64,000 nucleotides of DNA, taken from NCBI GenBank assembly GCA_963773315.1, contig CAVZAF010000010.1, forward strand, positions 117,519 to 181,518. Reading direction: 5' to 3'. The notes beneath the pieces are model-generated. The model was given only the letters and a program-made list of their open reading frames with translations. It did no database searches and was not told the DNA's origin. The stretch comes from an uncultured Acidimicrobiales bacterium (lineage in GTDB: Bacteria > Actinomycetota > Acidimicrobiia > Acidimicrobiales > DATKAS01). Of this stretch, positions 3,001-52,594 are shown piece after piece (position 1 is the first letter of the stretch; every line of letters starts with the position of its first letter). Made by a program: the position numbers and the translations under genes.

Positions 3001-3151
3001 CTCGTTTTGGCGTCCGTGTCAAGCACGAAACTCTCTGAAAGGCATTGGCGACACATAAGGCGACACGATCCATCCGTCGCGGAATTCCGAAATCCGGTAC
3101 AGTGAGGCGACGCGGCCATCCCCCGATGCCAGGACCGAGGACGGAGAGAGC

Positions 3152-41233: not shown

Positions 41234-41674
41234 TCAGTCGCCTACGTAGACGTCCGCAGTTGCACGCGCGACGACGTCGACGTCGTGAGGCGCGCCCGGC
41301 AACGCAGGGGAGAACACCAGGTGGGCTGACGATCGCAACGTGACGGTCACGGTGCCGTCCTCCGGATCGGAGTCCACCGCCACCGCCGCACGGTCGATCA
41401 CGGCGCTCGACCGAGCGGCGAGCGCGCGGCGCACGGCTTCCTCAGCGCGATCGGGGTCGAGCACGAACTCACCGGTCTCGCGGAAGCGCGCCTCGTCGAG
41501 GCCAAAGGTCACCGCGTCGTTCGCGGCCGCGTCGGCAGCCGCCGCGAGCTCTCGTCGTGCGAGGTACTCAGTCGTGGTGTCGACCGCGATCGCCGCGAGC
41601 ACGATGAGGACGAGCACGGCCGCGGGCACGAGGGCCAACACGCTGCCTCGATCGGAGTGCAGCCGGTCACGCAC
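41234..41674 (-). CDS. TadG/TadE-like minor pilin
   Basis: DRG|SVL prepilin site, TM, AADAAA. Confidence 0.8.
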   Translation of the reverse strand: MRDRLHSDRGSVLALVPAAVLVLIVLAAIAVDTTTEYLARRELAAAADAAANDAVTFGLDEARFRETGEFVLDPDRAEEAVRRALAARSSAVIDRAAVAVDSDPEDGTVTVTLRSSAHLVFSPALPGAPHDVDVVARATADVYVGD

Positions 41675-42116
41675 AGTCCGCCTCGCCTTCGGGTCCGTTG
41701 CGGTACGGATCGACGATCTCGCCGTGGCGCGCGCTGACGTGAATGCCGTCTCCCCATCCGCCGACGAAGGGCAAGGTCAGCGTCGGCACGTCGTAGCTCA
41801 CCTCGAGCGTCACGAGACGGCACCGCTCGAACGCGCCGGCGATGACGTGCAGGCTGCTCCGCGACACATCTCGGCCCCGCGCTGTGAGCTCGGAGCGCGC
41901 GGCGTCGATCGCGTCGGACTCGGCGTCACTCGCTTCCGCCGCTTCGACGTACGCCCTTGCACCTTCACGGGCGGCCGCGGTGGCGGCGAGCTTTGCATCG
42001 ATCACCGCCCACGCGTTCGTGATGAGGAGCACGCCGACGACGAAGATCAACACGCCGAACGGCAGCGCTTCGAAGCCGCCGACCTGACCCGCGTCACCGG
42101 AGGCGCGCTGCCTCAC
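41667..42116 (-). CDS. TadE-like minor pilin
   Basis: DAG|QV..TM..AAAREGARA. Confidence 0.82.
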   Translation of the reverse strand: MRQRASGDAGQVGGFEALPFGVLIFVVGVLLITNAWAVIDAKLAATAAAREGARAYVEAAEASDAESDAIDAARSELTARGRDVSRSSLHVIAGAFERCRLVTLEVSYDVPTLTLPFVGGWGDGIHVSARHGEIVDPYRNGPEGEADCA

Positions 42117-42499
42117 CGCAGCACCTCGCGGCGGACCCTCACGGTCCGCTCGATCGAGCCCGCACCGAACGCGCGCAAGAACCCCGGGCGGCTCACGCGC
42201 ACGGTCACCGCGACAGTGTCAGGGCCGAGGTCCCAGCTGATCGAGGCGCTTTCACCCAGCACGCCGAGCGCGTCGCGGATCTTCGCCTCGGCGCGGTTCG
42301 GGACTTCGGGATGGTCGGTCACGGACGACCCGGCGACGCGCCTCGCGCCCGCGGCTGCCGCCTCGGTCACGACCGACGCCGCGTAGAGGCCTACCACCAC
42401 ATGGACGGCGAGCAACAGGAACGCGAGGAACATGGTGACACCAGCGAGCGACGACACGATGCCCGACCCGCGCTCGCCGCGAAGCCGGCTGACGGTCAC
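42113..42499 (-). CDS. TadE-like minor pilin
   Basis: ERG|SG..TM..AAAAGARRVA. Confidence 0.78.
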   Translation of the reverse strand: MTVSRLRGERGSGIVSSLAGVTMFLAFLLLAVHVVVGLYAASVVTEAAAAGARRVAGSSVTDHPEVPNRAEAKIRDALGVLGESASISWDLGPDTVAVTVRVSRPGFLRAFGAGSIERTVRVRREVLR

Positions 42500-42714
42500 G
42501 AACCGATCTGCCCGACCTGGGTCGAGGTGCGGGCCGAGGCGTCGGCGAAGATGGCCTTGAACGCGACCCACATCAGCGCGCCGAGCAGTGCCATCACGAG
42601 GACCGCGATCGCAGACGAGATGACACCTTCACCGCGGTCGTCGGCCGCGACTCGATCCCACGCGTGGACGGCGAGCGCAGTCGCGGTAGCAGCGATTCGT
42701 TGGATGTACGACAT
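42496..42714 (-). CDS. Flp-type major pilin
   Basis: 72 aa, DDRG|EGV then TM; AAGGAG RBS. Confidence 0.8.
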   Translation of the reverse strand: MSYIQRIAATATALAVHAWDRVAADDRGEGVISSAIAVLVMALLGALMWVAFKAIFADASARTSTQVGQIGS

Positions 42715-42731: not shown

Positions 42732-43613
42732 TCAGGATTGGGCGAACAGCTGCATCGCAGCGAGGAAGGGGATGGCGAGCAGGATCGCTCCGGGCACGAG
42801 CGCGGCGACCGTGACGGGGATCCACACCTGCTGGTTGCGTCGCTCGACCAAGGCGATGAGGTCTCGGTGCGACTCGCGTCGCATCGCCGCGGCTTCCTCC
42901 GAGACGAGGCGGCCGAGATCGGTGGTCTCGCGCTCGAGCGCAAGGATCGAGACGAGCCGGTCGACCGACGGGACCTCGACGGTTGCGGCCCACTCGCGGA
43001 GCGCGGCGCTGACCGAGAGGCCCTGACCGACGCGCGTCAGCGCTCGCCGAAGGTCCTGCGCGCACGCGCCTCGACCCCGATCGGCGAGCCGGCCGAGCGC
43101 AGGCCCGAGTGCGTAGCCCGCGCCGAGCAACATCGCGAGCTGCTCGGTGACGACGGGGAGCTCGGCTGCGACGCGCCGCTTCCATGCGTCAGACGCCAGG
43201 GTGACGCGGTGCTCTACGAGGAGGAACCCCAGCGCGGCTGGGGTGATTGTGAGGAGCACCGCGACACCCGTCGTCGCGCCCCCGGCTGCTGCGATGAGCA
43301 GGCCGAGGGCGAGACCGGCAACGCACCAACCGACCTGACGTAGCCGCACCGCGCTCGCGTCGAGGTCGGAGTGCACGCGGGTGAGCCGCGTCGTCAGGTC
43401 GTCGTGCACGCCGAGGGCGCGAGCGACGACGTCTCCCAACGTCCCGGCCGAGTCGCTCAGCCAGTCGAGGGCGGACGGTGTGGCGGACCCCTCTCGGCGG
43501 CCGGCGGTAAGTCGTCGAGCAAGCGAGACCCGGCGAGCCCAACGGGTGTCGGCGAGGGCGAGGGTCGCACCGACCCAGACGATCACGCCGCAACCGAGCA
43601 TCGCGCGGCTCAC
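42732..43613 (-). CDS. tadC: TadC (T2SS-F family) membrane protein
   Basis: ELPVVTEQLAMLLGAG, C-terminal TM. Confidence 0.85.
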   Translation of the reverse strand: MSRAMLGCGVIVWVGATLALADTRWARRVSLARRLTAGRREGSATPSALDWLSDSAGTLGDVVARALGVHDDLTTRLTRVHSDLDASAVRLRQVGWCVAGLALGLLIAAAGGATTGVAVLLTITPAALGFLLVEHRVTLASDAWKRRVAAELPVVTEQLAMLLGAGYALGPALGRLADRGRGACAQDLRRALTRVGQGLSVSAALREWAATVEVPSVDRLVSILALERETTDLGRLVSEEAAAMRRESHRDLIALVERRNQQVWIPVTVAALVPGAILLAIPFLAAMQLFAQS

Positions 43614-44473
43614 GTGAACATCCGCTCGGCTCGGGGCAACCGGAGGATCCGTCCGGCCCACACCCAGCACACCGCGATGAGTGCGAGGGCCGCGGCGACG
43701 ATGGCCTGCGCAGTCCGCCCTTCGTATGCAGCCCGTCCGGTGCCGAGCGACAGGCCGACGAGTGCCATTCCGACGGGGACGATCAGGACGAACTTGCGCG
43801 CAAAGCGAGCGCCGGCTTGTCGCGACGTCGCATCCCGACGCAGGTCGAGCTCGCGGACGCGGTCTTGGATGAGGGCTTCGAGCCGGCGATCGACGCCGCT
43901 CCCTCCGACCTGATGGGCGACGAGCAGCGTCTCGCAGATCACATCGCTGCTGGGCTCGGCGAGCTCGGCCTTCAGCACACCGAGTGCTCGGCCGAAGTCA
44001 GTCGACGCCTGCCACTCTCGTTGCGCAGTGGCAAACGCCTCTCGGACTCCGGGAGCGGCGCGTCGTCCCGATTCGAAGAGGGCCTGAGGGATCGGGCGAC
44101 CCGCGGCCCCGGAGAGCACCCGCGTCTCGTCGAGGACCGCTGGCCACGCCGCGGCGACGCGGTCTTGCCTCCGATCGAGCTCCGCCCGCGCGGACACGAC
44201 GGCGATCGCGATGCAGAGCGCGCCGCTGATCGCGGCCGGCAGAAGCGCGCCGAATAGCGCGAGCGCAGCGAGCGCGGCTGCCGCCCCGACCACCACGGCC
44301 CTGACCGACAGCCCGGTGACCGGCGGAAGCGCGAGCCGGCGACCCGGCGTCCGACGGGCCCTGGGGCCAGGCGTCACGCCGTTCCAGCGAAGCGCCAGGC
44401 TCGTGTAGACGAGGTGCGCGCCATAGGCGGCCAGGCAAGCGATGAGTGCGGGGGCGAGCTGCGATCGGCTCAT
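43610..44473 (-). CDS. tadB: TadB (T2SS-F family) membrane protein
   Basis: WPAVLD..AG..PQAL, multiple TMs, follows tadA. Confidence 0.85.
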   Translation of the reverse strand: MSRSQLAPALIACLAAYGAHLVYTSLALRWNGVTPGPRARRTPGRRLALPPVTGLSVRAVVVGAAAALAALALFGALLPAAISGALCIAIAVVSARAELDRRQDRVAAAWPAVLDETRVLSGAAGRPIPQALFESGRRAAPGVREAFATAQREWQASTDFGRALGVLKAELAEPSSDVICETLLVAHQVGGSGVDRRLEALIQDRVRELDLRRDATSRQAGARFARKFVLIVPVGMALVGLSLGTGRAAYEGRTAQAIVAAALALIAVCWVWAGRILRLPRAERMFT

Positions 44474-45768
44474 CGACCGCTTCCCGACAGGACTGTCCGC
44501 ACCACGAGGCCGCGCTCGCCGAACCGTCGCTGGAGGCGTTCGGGAAGCTCTCCCGTCCACTGCAGGCGACCCCCTGGCCCGTCCGGTGCGAACACCTCGG
44601 TCAGCGTGAAGTGAGGCGAATCGGGCCCGCTGACCAGCTCTTCGACTGCGACGACGCTGGTGATCCGCACTCCGTCGCGAGTGCGCGCCGAGTGGACGAC
44701 CACGTCGATCGCGTCGCTCACGAGCGAGGTCAGTGCTGCGAATGGGAGGTGTCTCCCCGCTTCGGACAGCTGGCTCAGGAACCGCAGGCGGCTGAGGGCC
44801 TGAGCGGCCGAGCTCGCGTGGATCGTCGTGTAGCCGGTGACCCCTGAGGACAGCGCGAGGAGCAAGGAGAGCGCCTCGCGGTCGCGCACCTCGCCGACGA
44901 CGGCGACGTCGGGAGCCATCCGCAGGAACCCCGCGACGAGTCGTCGGAGGTCGACCTCAGGTCGATCGGCCCGCGCCGGCCGGGTCTGCATCTGGGCGAC
45001 GTTCGGAAGCGCGATGTCGGCCTCGAACACCTCTTCCGCCACGACGACGCGCAGCGACGGCTCGAGCTCTGCGAGGCAGCACGACAGCAACGTGGTCTTG
45101 CCCGCACCGGGTGCGCCCGCGAACACGATGGACGCGCGTGCCTTCGTGCACGCGGCGAGGAATGCAGCGACTGCCGGTTCGACGGCGCCGAGCTCGACGA
45201 GCTCGTCGAGCGAGCGGATCGGCACGCCCGTGAACTTCCGGATGTTGACGAGCATGTGCCCGCCGCGGCCGACGTCACCGTGGACGATGTGCACGCGCGA
45301 TCCGTCGTCGAGGCGCGCGTCTTGCAGTCCCTCCGCCGGATCGAGCTTGCGGTGGGCGCCGGGCGCGTCGTCGAGCAAGCGCGTGAGCGTGCGGAGCACG
45401 TGATCGTCGTCGTGGAAGACCTCGTCGTGGAACCCGCTCGGACCCGCGTGTCGCTTGACGAAGATCGCGTCAGGAGCGTTGATCTCGATCTCCCAGACGT
45501 CGTCATCGACGAGGAGTGGCGCCAACGGCCCGTAGCCGCTGAGGTTTCGCAGGGCGCGGTCGACGACGCTCTCGGGGTCGGCGACTGGCGTCGGCCGGAT
45601 GCCGCGCTGGAAGTCGACGTTCCAGCGATCGACCTCGTCCACGAGCATCGCTCTCAACGCTTCGGTGCTTTGGTCGTGGAGTCCTGTGCGCTTCGCGCGG
45701 TCTTGCACGCGGCGCTCGATCTCGACGAGGGGTGACGCTGCGAGCGCGGCGTCGAACGTGGTGGTCAT
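44470..45768 (-). CDS. tadA: TadA/CpaF pilus assembly ATPase
   Basis: GAPGAGKTT, LRMAPD, VGEVRD, TTIHA. Confidence 0.93.
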   Translation of the reverse strand: MTTTFDAALAASPLVEIERRVQDRAKRTGLHDQSTEALRAMLVDEVDRWNVDFQRGIRPTPVADPESVVDRALRNLSGYGPLAPLLVDDDVWEIEINAPDAIFVKRHAGPSGFHDEVFHDDDHVLRTLTRLLDDAPGAHRKLDPAEGLQDARLDDGSRVHIVHGDVGRGGHMLVNIRKFTGVPIRSLDELVELGAVEPAVAAFLAACTKARASIVFAGAPGAGKTTLLSCCLAELEPSLRVVVAEEVFEADIALPNVAQMQTRPARADRPEVDLRRLVAGFLRMAPDVAVVGEVRDREALSLLLALSSGVTGYTTIHASSAAQALSRLRFLSQLSEAGRHLPFAALTSLVSDAIDVVVHSARTRDGVRITSVVAVEELVSGPDSPHFTLTEVFAPDGPGGRLQWTGELPERLQRRFGERGLVVRTVLSGSGR

Positions 45769-47073
45769 ACCGCGTCGGCCTCGGGCTCGGTCCAACGCCC
45801 CAAGCTTCCGGGAGCGACCGGCTCCGGACGCTCGTCGTCGAGCTCTTCGAACGTGAGCGCCCGGGTCTCGAGGACGGTGCTGACCGCCCTCGTCGTCGGC
45901 GTGACGAGCGGAGCGGGGAGCGGCCGCCCTGCCCGCACTGCGTCCTCGACGGCGCGACGAGTGACGACGAAGAGCGGTGCGCCGACTGGCGAGCCTGTGG
46001 AACCGGACCTGGTCAGCAGAGGGAGGGCCCGAGCGATGGCCGCGCGCTCGCGGGGCGATCTCGGCGCATGGTTGACCACGGTGACGAGCCGCAGGGGATC
46101 GACGCCGTGCTCGAGCACGTCGCGAAGGACCTGGGCGAGGCTGTGCAGCCCGCCGGTCGTGGCCGTACCGACGACGACGGTCGCGCTTCGCGCGAGCGAG
46201 CACGGTGCGCGAGATCGCGTTGCGTTCCTCGACCTCGAAGGAGCCGCACTCGTGGTGGCCGTCGACGTCGGGATCGACGTCCCCGACGACCATCGGGTAG
46301 GCCCCGAGCAGTGAGTCGAGGGCTGCGTCGAGGGCCCGTGGCCGGAGCGACGACCAGCCTCGGCGTCGGCGCATCCCCAGGAGCAGGTGGTAGCCGCGCT
46401 CCTCGACGTCGAACACCATCGAGTGGACGGCCGACGGGCCGAGCGACCCGCCGCGATGCGCTTCGACGAGCTCGGGAAGCCCGGGGACGATGTCGGGCGC
46501 GTGGTGGAGCACGCCCTGGTCTGCGTCGAGCGCGAGGTCGGCGAGCAGGACGGCTCCCGGACGATGTCGGGCCGCGAGTCCCTGTGCGACCGCGGCCGCG
46601 ATCGTGGACGCGCCCGATCCCCGCGCACCGGTCACCGCGACGAGGTCACCGGCCCACGCCCGAACGGGGCTCGCGATGGGCGCGGCGCCGGCGACGCCGC
46701 GGGGGATCGCTCTTGTCATGCCGTCGAGCGCGGTGATCAGGTCTTCGACGCTGAAGTCACGGGCAAGCACGGCAGTCGCGCCGAGCGCGTCCCAGTCCCG
46801 GATCACTCGTGGGTCGGCGACGACGAAGACCGCCACCCCCGAGCGACGCGCCTCGTCCAGCAGGTCGCGGTCGACCGACGGGAGACCGCCATCGACGAGC
46901 AGCGCCGAGAACGACCGGCCTGACGCGAGCCGTACTCGCGTCTCTTCGGCGCTGACCGATTTGAGGAACTCGATCGGGACTCCGCCCGCCGTGGCCAGCC
47001 GCGCGAGGTCGCTGAACCACGCGGACCGCGCGGACGCGAGGCCGAGCACGACGTACCGCTCGCCGGGGATCAC
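45765..47073 (-). CDS. TadZ/CpaE/Ssd-like receiver + MinD-type protein (frameshift at about 46190)
   Basis: Atypical receiver domain, degenerate Walker A GARGSGAST, LLADL. Confidence 0.78.
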
Positions 47074-47816
47074 GGCGCCGCCTCGAGCGCGTCGGGGACG
47101 ACGGTGGGCTGGTAGGCGAGGCCAAGAGTCGCGGAGTCGGTGCGCACCAGGGTCAGCTCGCCGGCGCGCGCCGCGTGCACGACCGCATCGACGTCGGCCT
47201 CGGCCTGCAGGCCGAGCGTCACCACGTCCTTGGTGCCGACTGCGAGGCCGGCCGGTTTCGACAGCCGTTCGACCAGCGCCGTGCTCGCGACCGTGAGCGT
47301 CACGGCGTCGGGGCCGCTGCCATAGGTGGCGAGCACCGCGACGTGCTCACCGGACACGAGGCGGCCGTCGAGCGCGCGATCGGAGTCGACGGACAGGGAG
47401 ACCTCGAAAGGCGACAATGGGCCTCTCGCGAGCGCGGGCGCCTGCACCAGCTGGCCGCTCGCGAGGGGACCCAGCGAGGTGGCACCAGCGAGGGTCGACG
47501 GCTCGGTGAACGCCAGCGCTGCCTGCTCGGGCGGGAGGTCAACCGGGACCGTCGTCAGGTCTGCGGCGGTGAGCCGAGCGCCCGCCTCGACAGAGTGCGC
47601 AGCGACGACGTAGCGGGTCGGCGCGTGCGGCTTGGGAGTGGCGAGGACGAACGCGCCGACTGCCGCGATCGCCACGAGAAGCCCTCCGACCAGGGCGCGT
47701 CCCGATGGTCGCCTGCCCCGTGACGCGACGACACCTGCGACTTGCCGTGACCGCGTCTCATCGCGGTCTCCGCCGTGCGCACGGGCGCGCTCCAAGAGCG
47801 CGTTGGTGCTCTTCAT
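47070..47816 (-). CDS. SAF-domain RcpC/CpaB-like protein
   Basis: TM then YVVAAHSVEAGARLTAADL (SAF) and GEHVAVLAT. Confidence 0.82.
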   Translation of the reverse strand: MKSTNALLERARAHGGDRDETRSRQVAGVVASRGRRPSGRALVGGLLVAIAAVGAFVLATPKPHAPTRYVVAAHSVEAGARLTAADLTTVPVDLPPEQAALAFTEPSTLAGATSLGPLASGQLVQAPALARGPLSPFEVSLSVDSDRALDGRLVSGEHVAVLATYGSGPDAVTLTVASTALVERLSKPAGLAVGTKDVVTLGLQAEADVDAVVHAARAGELTLVRTDSATLGLAYQPTVVPDALEAAP

Positions 47817-47887
47817 CTCCGCCGATCCCTCCCGCCGTTTCCGCCGCCGTCAGCCCTCGCCAAGGGCCGATCTCATCAAGCGCCGAG

Positions 47888-47917
47888 AAGGTACTGAGAC
47901 TCATCGAAACACGTCAA
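47888..47917 (-). promoter_or_regulatory. Tad operon promoter
   Basis: TTGACG-N18-TACCTT on minus strand. Confidence 0.6.
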
Positions 47918-48026
47918 ATCGAGAACCGGGCGCCGCGGGCGATCGGATCGCTCACAGCACCCAGGAGGCCGTGCGCTCTCGCGTTTGGCGCCCTCGCACG
48001 AAAACGCATCGAAATCCACCGAAACG
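47902..48026. repeat. Two arrays of 10-bp-phased direct repeats
   Basis: CATCGAAACA/CGTCAAATCG (47902-47921); CACGAAAACG/CATCGAAATC/CACCGAAACG (47997-48026). Confidence 0.7.
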
Positions 48027-48053
48027 CGCCCACCCCGTCGTACCATGGCCCTC

Positions 48054-48326
48054 ATGACCGTGACCGATGAGCACATGAACACCAAAGCTGCAGGTGAGGA
48101 GATCCGATGGCTCTCGACGGCGGCCGCCGCGAAGCGCCTCGGCATCACGAATCGCACGCTCTACCGCTTCATCGACGAAGGATTGCTGCCCGCTTACCGC
48201 TTCGGGCGAGTGATCCGACTGCAGCAGAAGGAAGTCGACGCGTTCATCCAGCGCAGTCGCATCGAACCAGGCACGCTCGAGCACCTCTACCCCGAGTCGA
48301 CGAGCGCAACCTCCGACACCGCCTGA
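48054..48326 (+). CDS. Excisionase/BldC-like (HTH_17) DNA-binding protein
   Basis: WLSTAAAAKRLGITNRTLYRFIDEGLLPAYRFGRVIRL; TACCAT -10 seven nt before ATG. Confidence 0.9.
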   Translation: MTVTDEHMNTKAAGEEIRWLSTAAAAKRLGITNRTLYRFIDEGLLPAYRFGRVIRLQQKEVDAFIQRSRIEPGTLEHLYPESTSATSDTA

Positions 48327-48841
48327 ACGGCGACCACCACTTCCGGTGTGGGGCCGGCAGTCGCCACCCGCACCACGTCACGGCCTCCTCCCACCAGGCG
48401 GCCTCGCAGCGCATCGGTCATGTCACCCACGAACAATGCAACGGTCGCCTGGTCAGCGACCAGATCGCTCAGCACATCGACGAACGTCACGTCCGACTCG
48501 GCGCTTCTCGTGCCCACCGGCACCGCGCGCCCGCCCGGCTCACCGCCGACTACCGCGATCGCATGCAGCGCGACCCAGCTCACCCGGCCGTCGTCGTGAC
48601 GCACGGCGACACAGTCCGCCGCGACGCGCCACACCGCCACTCTGTGGCGTCGCCCCGACCGCAACGTGAGCATCGCGGGGGCGCCGCGCTCGGCGAGGTC
48701 GAGCAGGGTGCCCGAAAGTGTCGCGTCGTCACCGGCCGCCTGGCGCAGCCATCCCTCACGGGCTCGCGAGGCTGCTGCCTCCTCTTGTCGCGTGTCGGCC
48801 GCGAAGCGATCCCAGTCCTGCTGGTCCCCCACGTGCCCCAC
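48287..48841 (-). CDS. Hypothetical protein with two Sm/SH3-like beta repeats
   Basis: LTLRSGRRHRVAVWRVAADCVAV..VALHAIAVV and LRGRLVGGGRDVVRV..VAVQAVSEV. Confidence 0.7.
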   Translation of the reverse strand: MGHVGDQQDWDRFAADTRQEEAAASRAREGWLRQAAGDDATLSGTLLDLAERGAPAMLTLRSGRRHRVAVWRVAADCVAVRHDDGRVSWVALHAIAVVGGEPGGRAVPVGTRSAESDVTFVDVLSDLVADQATVALFVGDMTDALRGRLVGGGRDVVRVATAGPTPEVVVAVQAVSEVALVDSG

Positions 48842-51749: not shown

Positions 51750-52594
51750 GCTTTCAGTCGGGTTTCGTCACGTTCATCGGCCGCCCCAACGTGGGGAAGT
51801 CCACGCTGCTGAACCACATCCTCGGCACGAAGGTCTCGATCGTCTCCGACAAGCCTCAGACGACACGCACCCAGGTGCGCGGCGTGCTCAACCGGGCCGA
51901 TGCGCAGGTCGTGTTCGTCGACACGCCGGGCATCCACAAGCCCGTCACCGCGCTCGGCACGAAGCTCAACGCGACCGCGAACGAGGCGCTCAGCGGAGTC
52001 GACGTGGTCTGCCTCGTCATCGACGCCACGATGCCGTTTGGGCGGGGCGACAAGTTCGTCGCCGCGGGCGTGCCCAACGACGCGGTCGTCGTCGTGAACA
52101 AGGTCGACATCGCCAAGCCGCACGAGGTGCTCGAGCAGCTGCGTAAGGCCGGCGAGCTCGAGCTGAGCGAGTACTTCCCCGTGTCAGCCGCCACCGGCAA
52201 AGGAGTCGACGCGCTCGTCGAGCACCTCGTGACCCGCCTGCCCGAGGGCCCACTGCTCTATCCCGATGACGTCGTCACTGACGTACCCGAGGCGTTCTGG
52301 GTCGCCGAGCTCGTGCGTGAGCAGCTCTTCCGCATCGCGCGCGAGGAGCTGCCGTACTCGATCGCGACTCGGGTGACCGAGTGGGAGGATCCCGGTCCTC
52401 ACATCCGCTGCGAGATCCTCGTCGAGCGCGACTCGCAGAAGGGGATGGTCATCGGCAAGGGCGGCTCGGTGCTGAAAGCGGTCGGCACCGCGGTGCGCGA
52501 GCAGCTGCCGCCGGGTGCGTTCATCGAGCTGTTCGTGAAGGTCGACAAGGACTGGCAGCGGCGCCCGCGGTCGGTCGAGCGCCTGGGCTACTGA
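51746..52594 (+). CDS. era: GTPase Era
   Basis: GRPNVGKST, DTPG, NKVD, KH motif VIGKGG. Confidence 0.97.
   Translation: MSFQSGFVTFIGRPNVGKSTLLNHILGTKVSIVSDKPQTTRTQVRGVLNRADAQVVFVDTPGIHKPVTALGTKLNATANEALSGVDVVCLVIDATMPFGRGDKFVAAGVPNDAVVVVNKVDIAKPHEVLEQLRKAGELELSEYFPVSAATGKGVDALVEHLVTRLPEGPLLYPDDVVTDVPEAFWVAELVREQLFRIAREELPYSIATRVTEWEDPGPHIRCEILVERDSQKGMVIGKGGSVLKAVGTAVREQLPPGAFIELFVKVDKDWQRRPRSVERLGY

Follow-up and report, generated by a model that had tools for sequence, protein, structure and literature searches.

We propose that a small winged-helix protein of the HTH_17 (excisionase-like) family, encoded divergently from a Tad-like pilus operon in an uncultured Acidimicrobiales bacterium, reads two arrays of short direct repeats in the intergenic region as a head-to-tail multimer and in this way controls its own promoter and probably the promoter of the tad operon; we put the probability of this reading at about one half. 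The stretch analysed, hereafter the window, comprises 64,000 nucleotides (G000:C10:117519-181518) of a 4.36-Mb genome of 68.5% G+C. As far as sequence can tell, the array upstream of the HTH_17 gene, here called array 2, is a real and conserved cis-element at the promoter of that gene. The features on which the argument turns are these:

47997..48026, plus strand: array 2, candidate operator of three direct 10-bp units, CACGAAAACG / CATCGAAATC / CACCGAAACG
48041..48046, plus strand: predicted -10 box TACCAT of the HTH_17 gene, 7 nt before the ATG (48054)
48054..48326, plus strand: HTH_17/excisionase-family winged-helix gene, 90 aa, with a predicted leaderless mRNA
47902..47921, plus strand: array 1, two units, CATCGAAACA / CGTCAAATCG, overlapping the spacer and -35 box of the putative tad promoter
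47888..47917, minus strand: putative tad promoter, with -35 TTGACG (47917-47912), an 18-nt spacer and -10 TACCTT (47893-47888)
47070..47816, minus strand: SAF-domain CpaB/RcpC-like gene heading the operon (Pfam SAF, E 2.6e-8)

The repeat arrays and their conservation

The units of array 2 follow the consensus CAYSGAAA, with GAAA starting at 48000, 48011 and 48021, that is 41, 30 and 20 bp upstream of the -10 box and at about -54, -43 and -33 from the ATG, and with the 3' ends of the A-tracts spaced exactly 10 bp apart; the A-tracts of array 1 are 9 bp apart. A preliminary description of this DNA had assigned both arrays a period of exactly 10 bp. The arrays themselves are found where it placed them, but their pitch ranges from 9 to 11 bp depending on the point of reference. 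The core promoter elements that it had read beside them, TTGACG-N18-TACCTT under array 1 and TACCAT downstream of array 2, are both present as written, although a consensus promoter and terminator scan returned 0 sites and called neither the tad nor the HTH promoter. The two putative -10 boxes are about 150 bp apart and face away from each other. Within array 1, ACTCATCGAAA is a 10/11 copy of ACGCATCGAAA from array 2, and the 11-mer AC[GT]CATCGAAA has two copies in the whole genome, one in each array. Three phased CGAAA[ACT] units occur as a single chain in the 4.36-Mb genome, namely array 2, with one other chain of two; the hexamer CGAAAY is found 15 times in the 64 kb, 3 of these inside one 120-bp stretch at the arrays. 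A genome-wide dimer scan also gave CGAAAY-type unit pairs elsewhere in the window, at 3023-3093 on the plus strand (C10:120541) and 51750-51770 on the minus strand (C10:169268). An Rfam scan of 47600-48400 at E <= 1 produced no match.

The HTH_17 gene is present in all 10 other genomes of the genus at 87-97% identity. Across the 11 genomes some 55 nt, beginning with unit 1 of array 2 and ending with the -10 box, form a near-invariant block that runs on as such to the ATG, with 2-3 substitutions in units 1 and 2 in three genomes; its flanks diverge, and the mean column identity of the whole intergenic alignment is 60% (10 genomes). The -10 box TACCAT is invariant in 10/10 aligned genomes. The number of arrays varies within the genus: a third array of two units (e.g. 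CGAAACGCCAGGAAATCC), which the window does not have, lies mid-spacer in four of these genomes (L003, L005, L006, L007). In another (G005, locus L002) an extra gene stands between the SAF and HTH genes, and array 2 and the -10 box remain with the HTH gene.

Relatives of the protein are encoded in at least 597 stretches of a species-representative genome collection, from which 80 were fetched; together with 30 from another search they make up the 110 loci analysed, which include some duplicates, and removal of look-alikes left 66 non-redundant upstream regions that we aligned on the -10 box. A TANNNT hexamer stands 5-10 nt before an in-frame ATG or GTG in 104/110 loci, a layout that only 1.2% of the ATG/GTG codons of this DNA have, and TACCAT is the commonest hexamer at this position (20/104). 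This placement of TANNNT directly before the start codon leads us to predict that the HTH transcript is leaderless. The preliminary description had pointed to orthologous intergenic regions of Acidimicrobiia as the place to look for a 10-bp periodic motif, and such a motif was indeed recovered there, at a fixed register to the -10 box: [CG]AAA peaks 19-21, 28-30 and 39-41 bp upstream of the box, in 26, 23 and 13 of the 66 loci respectively. The distances separating [CG]AAA units have one peak at 9 bp (7 pairs) and 10 bp (16 pairs) and a second at 19-21 bp, and the units show a strand bias of 106 vs 36. The 66 loci hold 25 pairs at 9-11 bp. The expectation is 0.84 from base shuffles, with no more than 5 in any of 1000, and 4.7 +/- 2.0 from random placement of the same units, with no more than 13 in any of 2000; in control windows lying 500 nt downstream the count is 0. 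The positions of the units other than the A-tract are also kept, as in ATCGAAA and CATGAAA. Weak hits of the A1 profile in families f50 and f41 were rejected, as they belong to another HTH_17 gene that is co-directional and has no SAF gene beside it.

Linkage to SAF and tad genes

A divergent SAF gene starting within about 500 bp was identified by tblastn in 43 of the 66 loci and by Pfam in 2 more (45/66 in all), the other upstream neighbours being PD40, solute-binding, LuxR-type (L052) and chorismate-binding genes, or unmatched open reading frames (ORFs). The start codons of the SAF and HTH genes are separated by a median of 119 bp in the non-redundant loci, so that in most lineages a single array lies within the shared control region. 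The array is present in 26/45 SAF-adjacent loci and in 15/21 of the others, which indicates that it follows the HTH promoter and not the SAF gene. Each of five sampled genomes that carry the HTH gene, all of them complete or near-complete, has a TadA gene 2-4 kb from it, at 44-65% identity; five sampled genomes without it have only TadA paralogues of 30-36% identity, or none. These figures hint that the HTH gene and the orthologous TadA co-occur, in a comparison of 5 with 5 genomes in which four of the HTH-less ones come from one family. In relatives, linkage of the HTH gene to tad and SAF genes is thus supported by the neighborhood counts, and this co-occurrence points the same way.

The HTH_17 protein

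The frame at 47985-48326 matches Pfam HTH_17 (PF12728) with E 6.2e-13 (49.2 bits, cut-off 27) and TIGR01764 'excise' with 51.3 bits (cut-off 28.8). An AlphaFold2 model built on a 22-sequence alignment has a mean predicted local distance difference test score of 78.7, with residues 21-70 above 93 and a poorly defined N-terminus and C-terminal tail; it shows two helices, a beta hairpin and a third helix, i.e. a stand-alone MerR-like winged helix without a coiled coil or effector domain. In a Foldseek search of the PDB the highest-ranking structure was BldC on smeA-ssfA DNA (6ama_B; template modeling score 0.80 by target, root-mean-square deviation 1.6 A, 52 columns), followed by a MerR-type regulator, the Pukovnik Xis 4j2n (1.0 A, 34% identity), RdfS 8dgl and RacA; no match reached E <= 0.001, as is usual for a domain this small. 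By sequence, phmmer against all PDB chains retrieved MerR-type regulators, RdfS (E 0.0043) and Gp37 Xis (E 0.05).

A class-wide search tallied a match to the protein in 27/30 other families. Identity over the core is 53-77% across 19 other families (L012-L030) and 60-77% across one order, and the relatives share the invariant core W-x15-RT-x-Y...GRV-R. In light of the latter range of identity and of a stable synteny, the HTH_17 gene is a vertically inherited chromosomal gene. A near-invariant C-terminal tail, RIxPGTLEHLYPE (residues 72-86 of alignment A1), falls in a part of the model of low confidence and is unmatched in the solved relatives. Metatranscriptome contigs from 4 soil RNA runs (3 studies) match 48076-48499, which covers the gene and its 3' flank, at 95-99% identity and weakly indicate that the gene is expressed; none extends upstream of 48076, and they cannot show where transcription starts.

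Relatives beyond the class and a second HTH_17 clade

Full-length orthologues extend to families of a further class of the phylum, f47 among them with 15/19 genomes, and in 6/8 fetched loci of that class (L111-L118) a SAF gene lies upstream. Four of these loci (L111, L113, L116, L117) display, instead of GAAA arrays, repeated TGTGGAC/GTCCACA motifs resembling DnaA boxes, together with a Shine-Dalgarno leader.

Starting from the SAF genes of other actinobacterial families we recovered a second clade of HTH_17 proteins, a member of which matches Pfam HTH_17 with E 1e-15 and gives no BLASTP alignment with the protein of the window. Its genes are again divergent from SAF/RcpC genes (15/19 tested upstream ORFs by Pfam) and occur in 17/26 genomes of family f41 and 15/21 of f46, tallies that include three genomes whose loci were left out of the locus analysis. 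In f41, 11/12 loci have the leaderless layout, with TANNNT 6-7 nt before the start codon, and in these the -10 box is preceded by 2-5 [CGT]AAA units, the majority of which fall within 1 bp of the distances 50, 40, 30 and 20 bp. This is the register of the Acidimicrobiia, but the unit differs, being mostly CAAA rather than mostly GAAA. The f46 gene has a Shine-Dalgarno leader and a single GCAAAC ahead of a TATTGT/TACTGT box. Since a very divergent HTH_17 gene of another class has the array as well, the simplest account is that it is read by the product of the adjacent gene itself.

Proposed mechanism and alternative explanations

In the mechanism that we favor, the HTH_17 protein would bind the three CAYSGAAA units at 47997-48026 head-to-tail, with one protomer per helical turn, and would place its wing over the A-tract and its recognition helix over the adjoining CAYS. 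Binding at array 2 would allow the protein to regulate its own predicted leaderless transcript; the strict register at this promoter suggests contact with the polymerase and hence activation, occlusion being the other possibility. On the two-unit copy at 47902-47921 the same protein would probably repress the tad operon, as suggested by the location of array 1 between the -35 and -10 boxes. We infer that the protein, and not RNA polymerase or another factor, reads the repeats, and likewise its stoichiometry, the sign of regulation and the effect on pili.

Several observations weigh against such a pairing of protein and repeats. The preliminary description had arrays over both promoters; the one on the HTH side is conserved, but on the tad side the block GAGAAGRTAYYGAGACWCATCGAAACRCGNCAAATCG is kept in 7/10 aligned genomes of the genus and missing in 3, with the tad promoter kept as TTGRCG...TAYCTT in the same 7, and no conserved reverse -10 box for a tad promoter was found at the level of the class. 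No [CG]AAA stands at any of the three positions in 25 of the 66 loci, and two or more units are confined to 18 loci; CATGAGA-like units are present, by eye, in several of the 25. An apparent covariation of protein and unit, in which the CATGAGA lineages carry RLI/YKFG and the others RFI/YRFG, was discarded because it follows the clades and is not independent. The 330 nt upstream of the orthologues from the other class (L111-L118) contain no phased GAAA array, even though these proteins keep the same recognition-helix residues; a reader that is kept where its operator is absent argues against the two forming a fixed pair. As regards the earlier designation as an Xis/BldC-like protein, the predicted winged-helix fold without an integrase is supported, while no BldC chain was found at E <= 1 by phmmer against all PDB chains.

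Some of the same evidence lends itself to another explanation, in which the phased A-tracts are bent DNA or a UP-like element, bound by the alpha C-terminal domains of the polymerase, that boosts a leaderless promoter lacking a -35 box, with the HTH protein binding elsewhere; we regard this as possible, if on the unlikely side. Seen from the -10 box the tracts do share one helical face, the Acidimicrobiia having them near -43 and -54 and the second clade near -42, -52 and -62, and positions of the -42/-52 type are the classical UP subsites. Moreover, among the top phased-dimer hits of this genome, GAAA tracts precede a TTGAYN -35 box at an rRNA promoter, at a DnaA-box cluster and at two LexA-box promoters, and the orthologues of the other class do without the array; all of this speaks against the HTH_17 protein as reader. 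However, the promoter-proximal unit sits at about -33, in the -35/spacer region, which is not a place of alpha binding; the units also retain their non-A positions (ATCGAAA, CATGAAA), and their sequence shifts with the HTH clade from GAAA to CAAA. Other arrays of this genome stand in other registers, at 33/43 bp and 41/54/65 bp from the -10 box, and the second copy is placed inside the tad core promoter in the opposite orientation. Nor are there general phased arrays upstream of the 16S genes in 10 other genomes of the order: in 700 nt upstream, phased pairs were found in 0/6 regions from 5 genomes with the HTH gene and in 1/5 regions (two pairs) from 4 genomes without it, the 16S gene of a fifth such genome standing at the end of its contig, which argues that phased arrays are not a general feature of strong promoters in the order.

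It is also conceivable, though distinctly improbable, that the array is the operator of some other direct-repeat factor, for instance of the OmpR/PhoB or NarL type, acting as an external regulator of both the HTH gene and the tad operon. A pitch of 10-11 bp and an overlap with the -35 region are typical of the direct repeats to which response regulators bind, as the discussion of PMC5859096 also states. The operon of Micrococcus luteus considered below includes a PAS histidine kinase (PMC8467076), and a LuxR-type gene is one of the non-SAF neighbors (L052). Yet no gene of the response-regulator type is conserved beside the locus, and the array tracks the HTH gene through rearrangements and reappears beside the very divergent HTH_17 gene of another class. 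A further explanation, that the divergent units control each other mainly by transcriptional interference and the repeats have no specific part, draws on the overlapping divergent transcripts mapped in M. luteus, from which its authors proposed interference (available text of PMC8467076), and on the median distance of 119 bp between the SAF and HTH start codons; we hold it to be very improbable, since it leaves conserved, phased and strand-biased units unexplained and since the putative -10 boxes of the window are about 150 bp apart and point away from each other.

The reading of both arrays by the HTH_17 protein can be extended into a broader proposal, which we consider doubtful: the HTH_17 gene, its array and the SAF/CpaB gene would constitute an ancient switch of Tad/competence pili, in which the protein filament docks in register to the -10 box and stands in for the -35 box, the invariant C-terminal tail may contact the polymerase, and in some lineages the protein is possibly an essential regulator with wider targets. 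If true, this switch would be found across much of Actinomycetota.

Phased tracts at other promoters of the genome

The tracts at other promoters of the same genome are as follows. At C1 about 5440 (minus strand) three phased GAAAA tracts stand before TTGACA-N17-TAGGTT, some 380 nt ahead of the 16S gene (27F site at C1:5061), and may represent a UP-like element of the rRNA promoter. A role of the HTH protein as a global regulator acting through the rRNA promoter finds no support in the 16S upstream comparison. On the contig of the window, at C10 about 97700-97860 (minus strand) and thus about 20 kb before it, two phased CGAAA units and a TTGACG come after a cluster resembling DnaA boxes (TGTCCACA, TTATCCA), and this region may be oriC or the dnaA promoter region. 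Paralogous promoters at C7 about 55880 (minus strand) and C2 about 886060 (plus strand), ahead of similar ORFs, combine two phased GAAA tracts and TTGATT with a following LexA-type box, TCGAAC-N4-GTTCGA, which overlaps the promoter spacer.

The tad-like operon and its neighborhood

The operon divergent from the HTH_17 gene runs in the order SAF/CpaB-CpaE-TadA-TadB-TadC-Flp-TadE, with candidate genes at the CpaB, CpaE, Flp and TadE places, and its members downstream of the SAF gene are listed here:

45765..47073, minus strand: CpaE/TadZ-like P-loop gene, split over two frames with a frame break near 46250-46300
44470..45732, minus strand: TadA/CpaF-type secretion ATPase (start at about 45732; Pfam T2SSE, E 2.2e-31)
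43610-44560 and 42732-43670, minus strand: two genes for T2SSF (TadB/TadC-like) membrane proteins (Pfam T2SSF)
42496-42714, minus strand: small Flp-like gene, 72 aa (DUF6133 25 bits, below the cut-off of 27; start and Shine-Dalgarno sequence read)
42113-42571 and 41667-42116, minus strand: two further TadE-like ORFs, without a family match
41234-41674, minus strand: TadE-like ORF (PF13400 Tad, 26.5 bits, above the cut-off of 22.3)

The divergence of the HTH_17 gene from a tad operon, as asserted in the preliminary description, is borne out by the profile matches (HTH_17, SAF, T2SSE, T2SSF and TadE/G-like), several of which are below their cut-offs: the SAF gene scores 24.6 bits with TIGR03177 pilus_cpaB (cut-off 71), the best NCBIfam match of the ATPase is TIGR03819 with 193 bits (equivalog cut-off 373), and the T2SSF matches have E 0.0011 (19.4 bits) for 43610-44560 and E 3e-9 (37.3 bits) for 42732-43670, the second of them above the cut-off of 25.2 bits. 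The CpaE-like gene has only weak P-loop matches, at aa 139-189, with every family match under its cut-off. It begins in an 867-aa ORF (44470-47073, minus strand), in which the profile of G+C content at third codon positions shows the coding frame to be lost between about aa 275 and 425; this ORF is for that reason not one gene but an artefact of an open non-coding frame, and the CpaE-like gene continues in another frame as ORF 45765-46628, owing to a frameshift or an assembly indel near 46250-46300. The single prepilin peptidase match of the genome (Peptidase_A24, 62 bits) is at C1:51987-52262, outside both window and operon.

The absence of a nearby integrase, also asserted in the preliminary description, holds: all 8 genome matches to the tyrosine recombinase family PF00589 are on contigs other than C10, and no recombinase was detected among the 19 larger flanking ORFs scanned, serine recombinases not having been searched genome-wide. 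The neighbors are instead housekeeping genes, coding for an Era-type GTPase (MMR_HSR1 and KH_2), a CNNM/CorC transporter, a DinG/YoaA-like helicase and a class II tRNA synthetase.

Comparison with known systems

UP elements and phased A-tract bends place A-tracts on one helical face upstream of strong promoters, near -42 and -52. The A-tracts described here resemble them in lying on one helical face near -43 and -54, but differ in having a unit in the -35/spacer region, conserved non-A positions and a copy inside the divergent core promoter.

Among proteins, the closest parallel in structure is BldC of Streptomyces (6AMA, 6AMK), which in the available text of PMC5859096 binds AATTNNNN(C) direct repeats one helical turn apart, cooperatively and head-to-tail in multimers of variable number, of 2 or 4 protomers, with its wing reading a 4-bp AT-rich tract in a narrowed minor groove. 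BldC shares with the modelled protein the build of a small MerR-like winged helix without a coiled coil and is its best structural match, and the repeats share, at the level of sequence pattern, the anatomy of one AT-rich tract per unit and a spacing of 10-11 bp. By contrast, the identity in the structural alignment is 24-26%, with no sequence match at the threshold given above; the protein described here has a conserved extra C-terminal helix and the RIxPGTLEHLYPE tail, its candidate unit is CAYSGAAA instead of AATTNNNN(C), its array stands in a fixed register to the -10 box of a predicted leaderless gene, and it is tied to a Tad-like operon, where BldC is tied to developmental genes.

Excisionases and recombination directionality factors assemble head-to-tail into filaments on DNA, and RdfS in addition acts as an activator of promoters; the available text of PMC11963761 groups RdfS, BldC and Xis as filament-forming winged helices of the HTH_17 type, which mostly oligomerise only on DNA. 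RdfS (8DGL) and Gp37 are the closest solved relatives by sequence, and the Xis of mycobacteriophage Pukovnik (4J2N) has the fold that is predicted here. The HTH_17 gene of the window differs from those of excisionases in that it has no tyrosine integrase on its contig and lies among housekeeping genes, in a synteny stable across the order. The model would link the HTH_17 gene beside SAF/CpaB structurally to the filament-forming winged helices of the BldC/Xis/RdfS kind.

The gene pair and a regulatory role for it are already in print, from M. luteus in 2021 (PMC8467076). According to the available text of that paper, Mlut_14660 (HTH-17, excisionase family) is divergent from Mlut_14650 (SAF, RcpC/CpaB-like) and Mlut_14640 (CpaE); point mutations in the HTH ORF, in its upstream region or in the SAF ORF alter comEA/EC promoter activity and transformation, and the HTH gene could not be deleted. 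In the model of its authors the HTH product represses the com genes and the two units oppose each other. The preliminary description had taken the circuit to be undescribed for Tad pili. This is true of the repeat array insofar as a full-text literature search, with subscription journals and supplements outside its reach, found no publication on it, and the available text of PMC8467076 (supplements not covered) describes neither a binding site nor a repeat array for the M. luteus pair, nor the register, the leaderless layout, the BldC/Xis fold or the spread over two HTH_17 clades; it is not true of the HTH_17/SAF/CpaE pair, which that paper ties to competence. The likeness between the M. luteus pair and ours is one of domains and divergent layout; as for the M. 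luteus residues S27, S46 and R64, residues 27, 46 and 64 of the f46-clade proteins do not match them. In M. luteus, furthermore, the HTH gene has a mapped 5' untranslated region and a Shine-Dalgarno sequence, whereas here it is predicted to be leaderless, and the SAF-CpaE unit lies apart from the tad clusters, whereas that of the window stands first in a full tad-like operon.

Actinobacteria use their Tad-type pili for adhesion and, in M. luteus, for DNA uptake, and hardly any regulators of these pili are known. The arrays described above offer a concrete candidate operator, consisting of 2-4 NAAA units at a 10-bp pitch, 20/30/40/50 bp from the -10 box of a predicted leaderless gene, and such an operator would give the unexplained competence mutations of M. 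luteus a mechanism to test.

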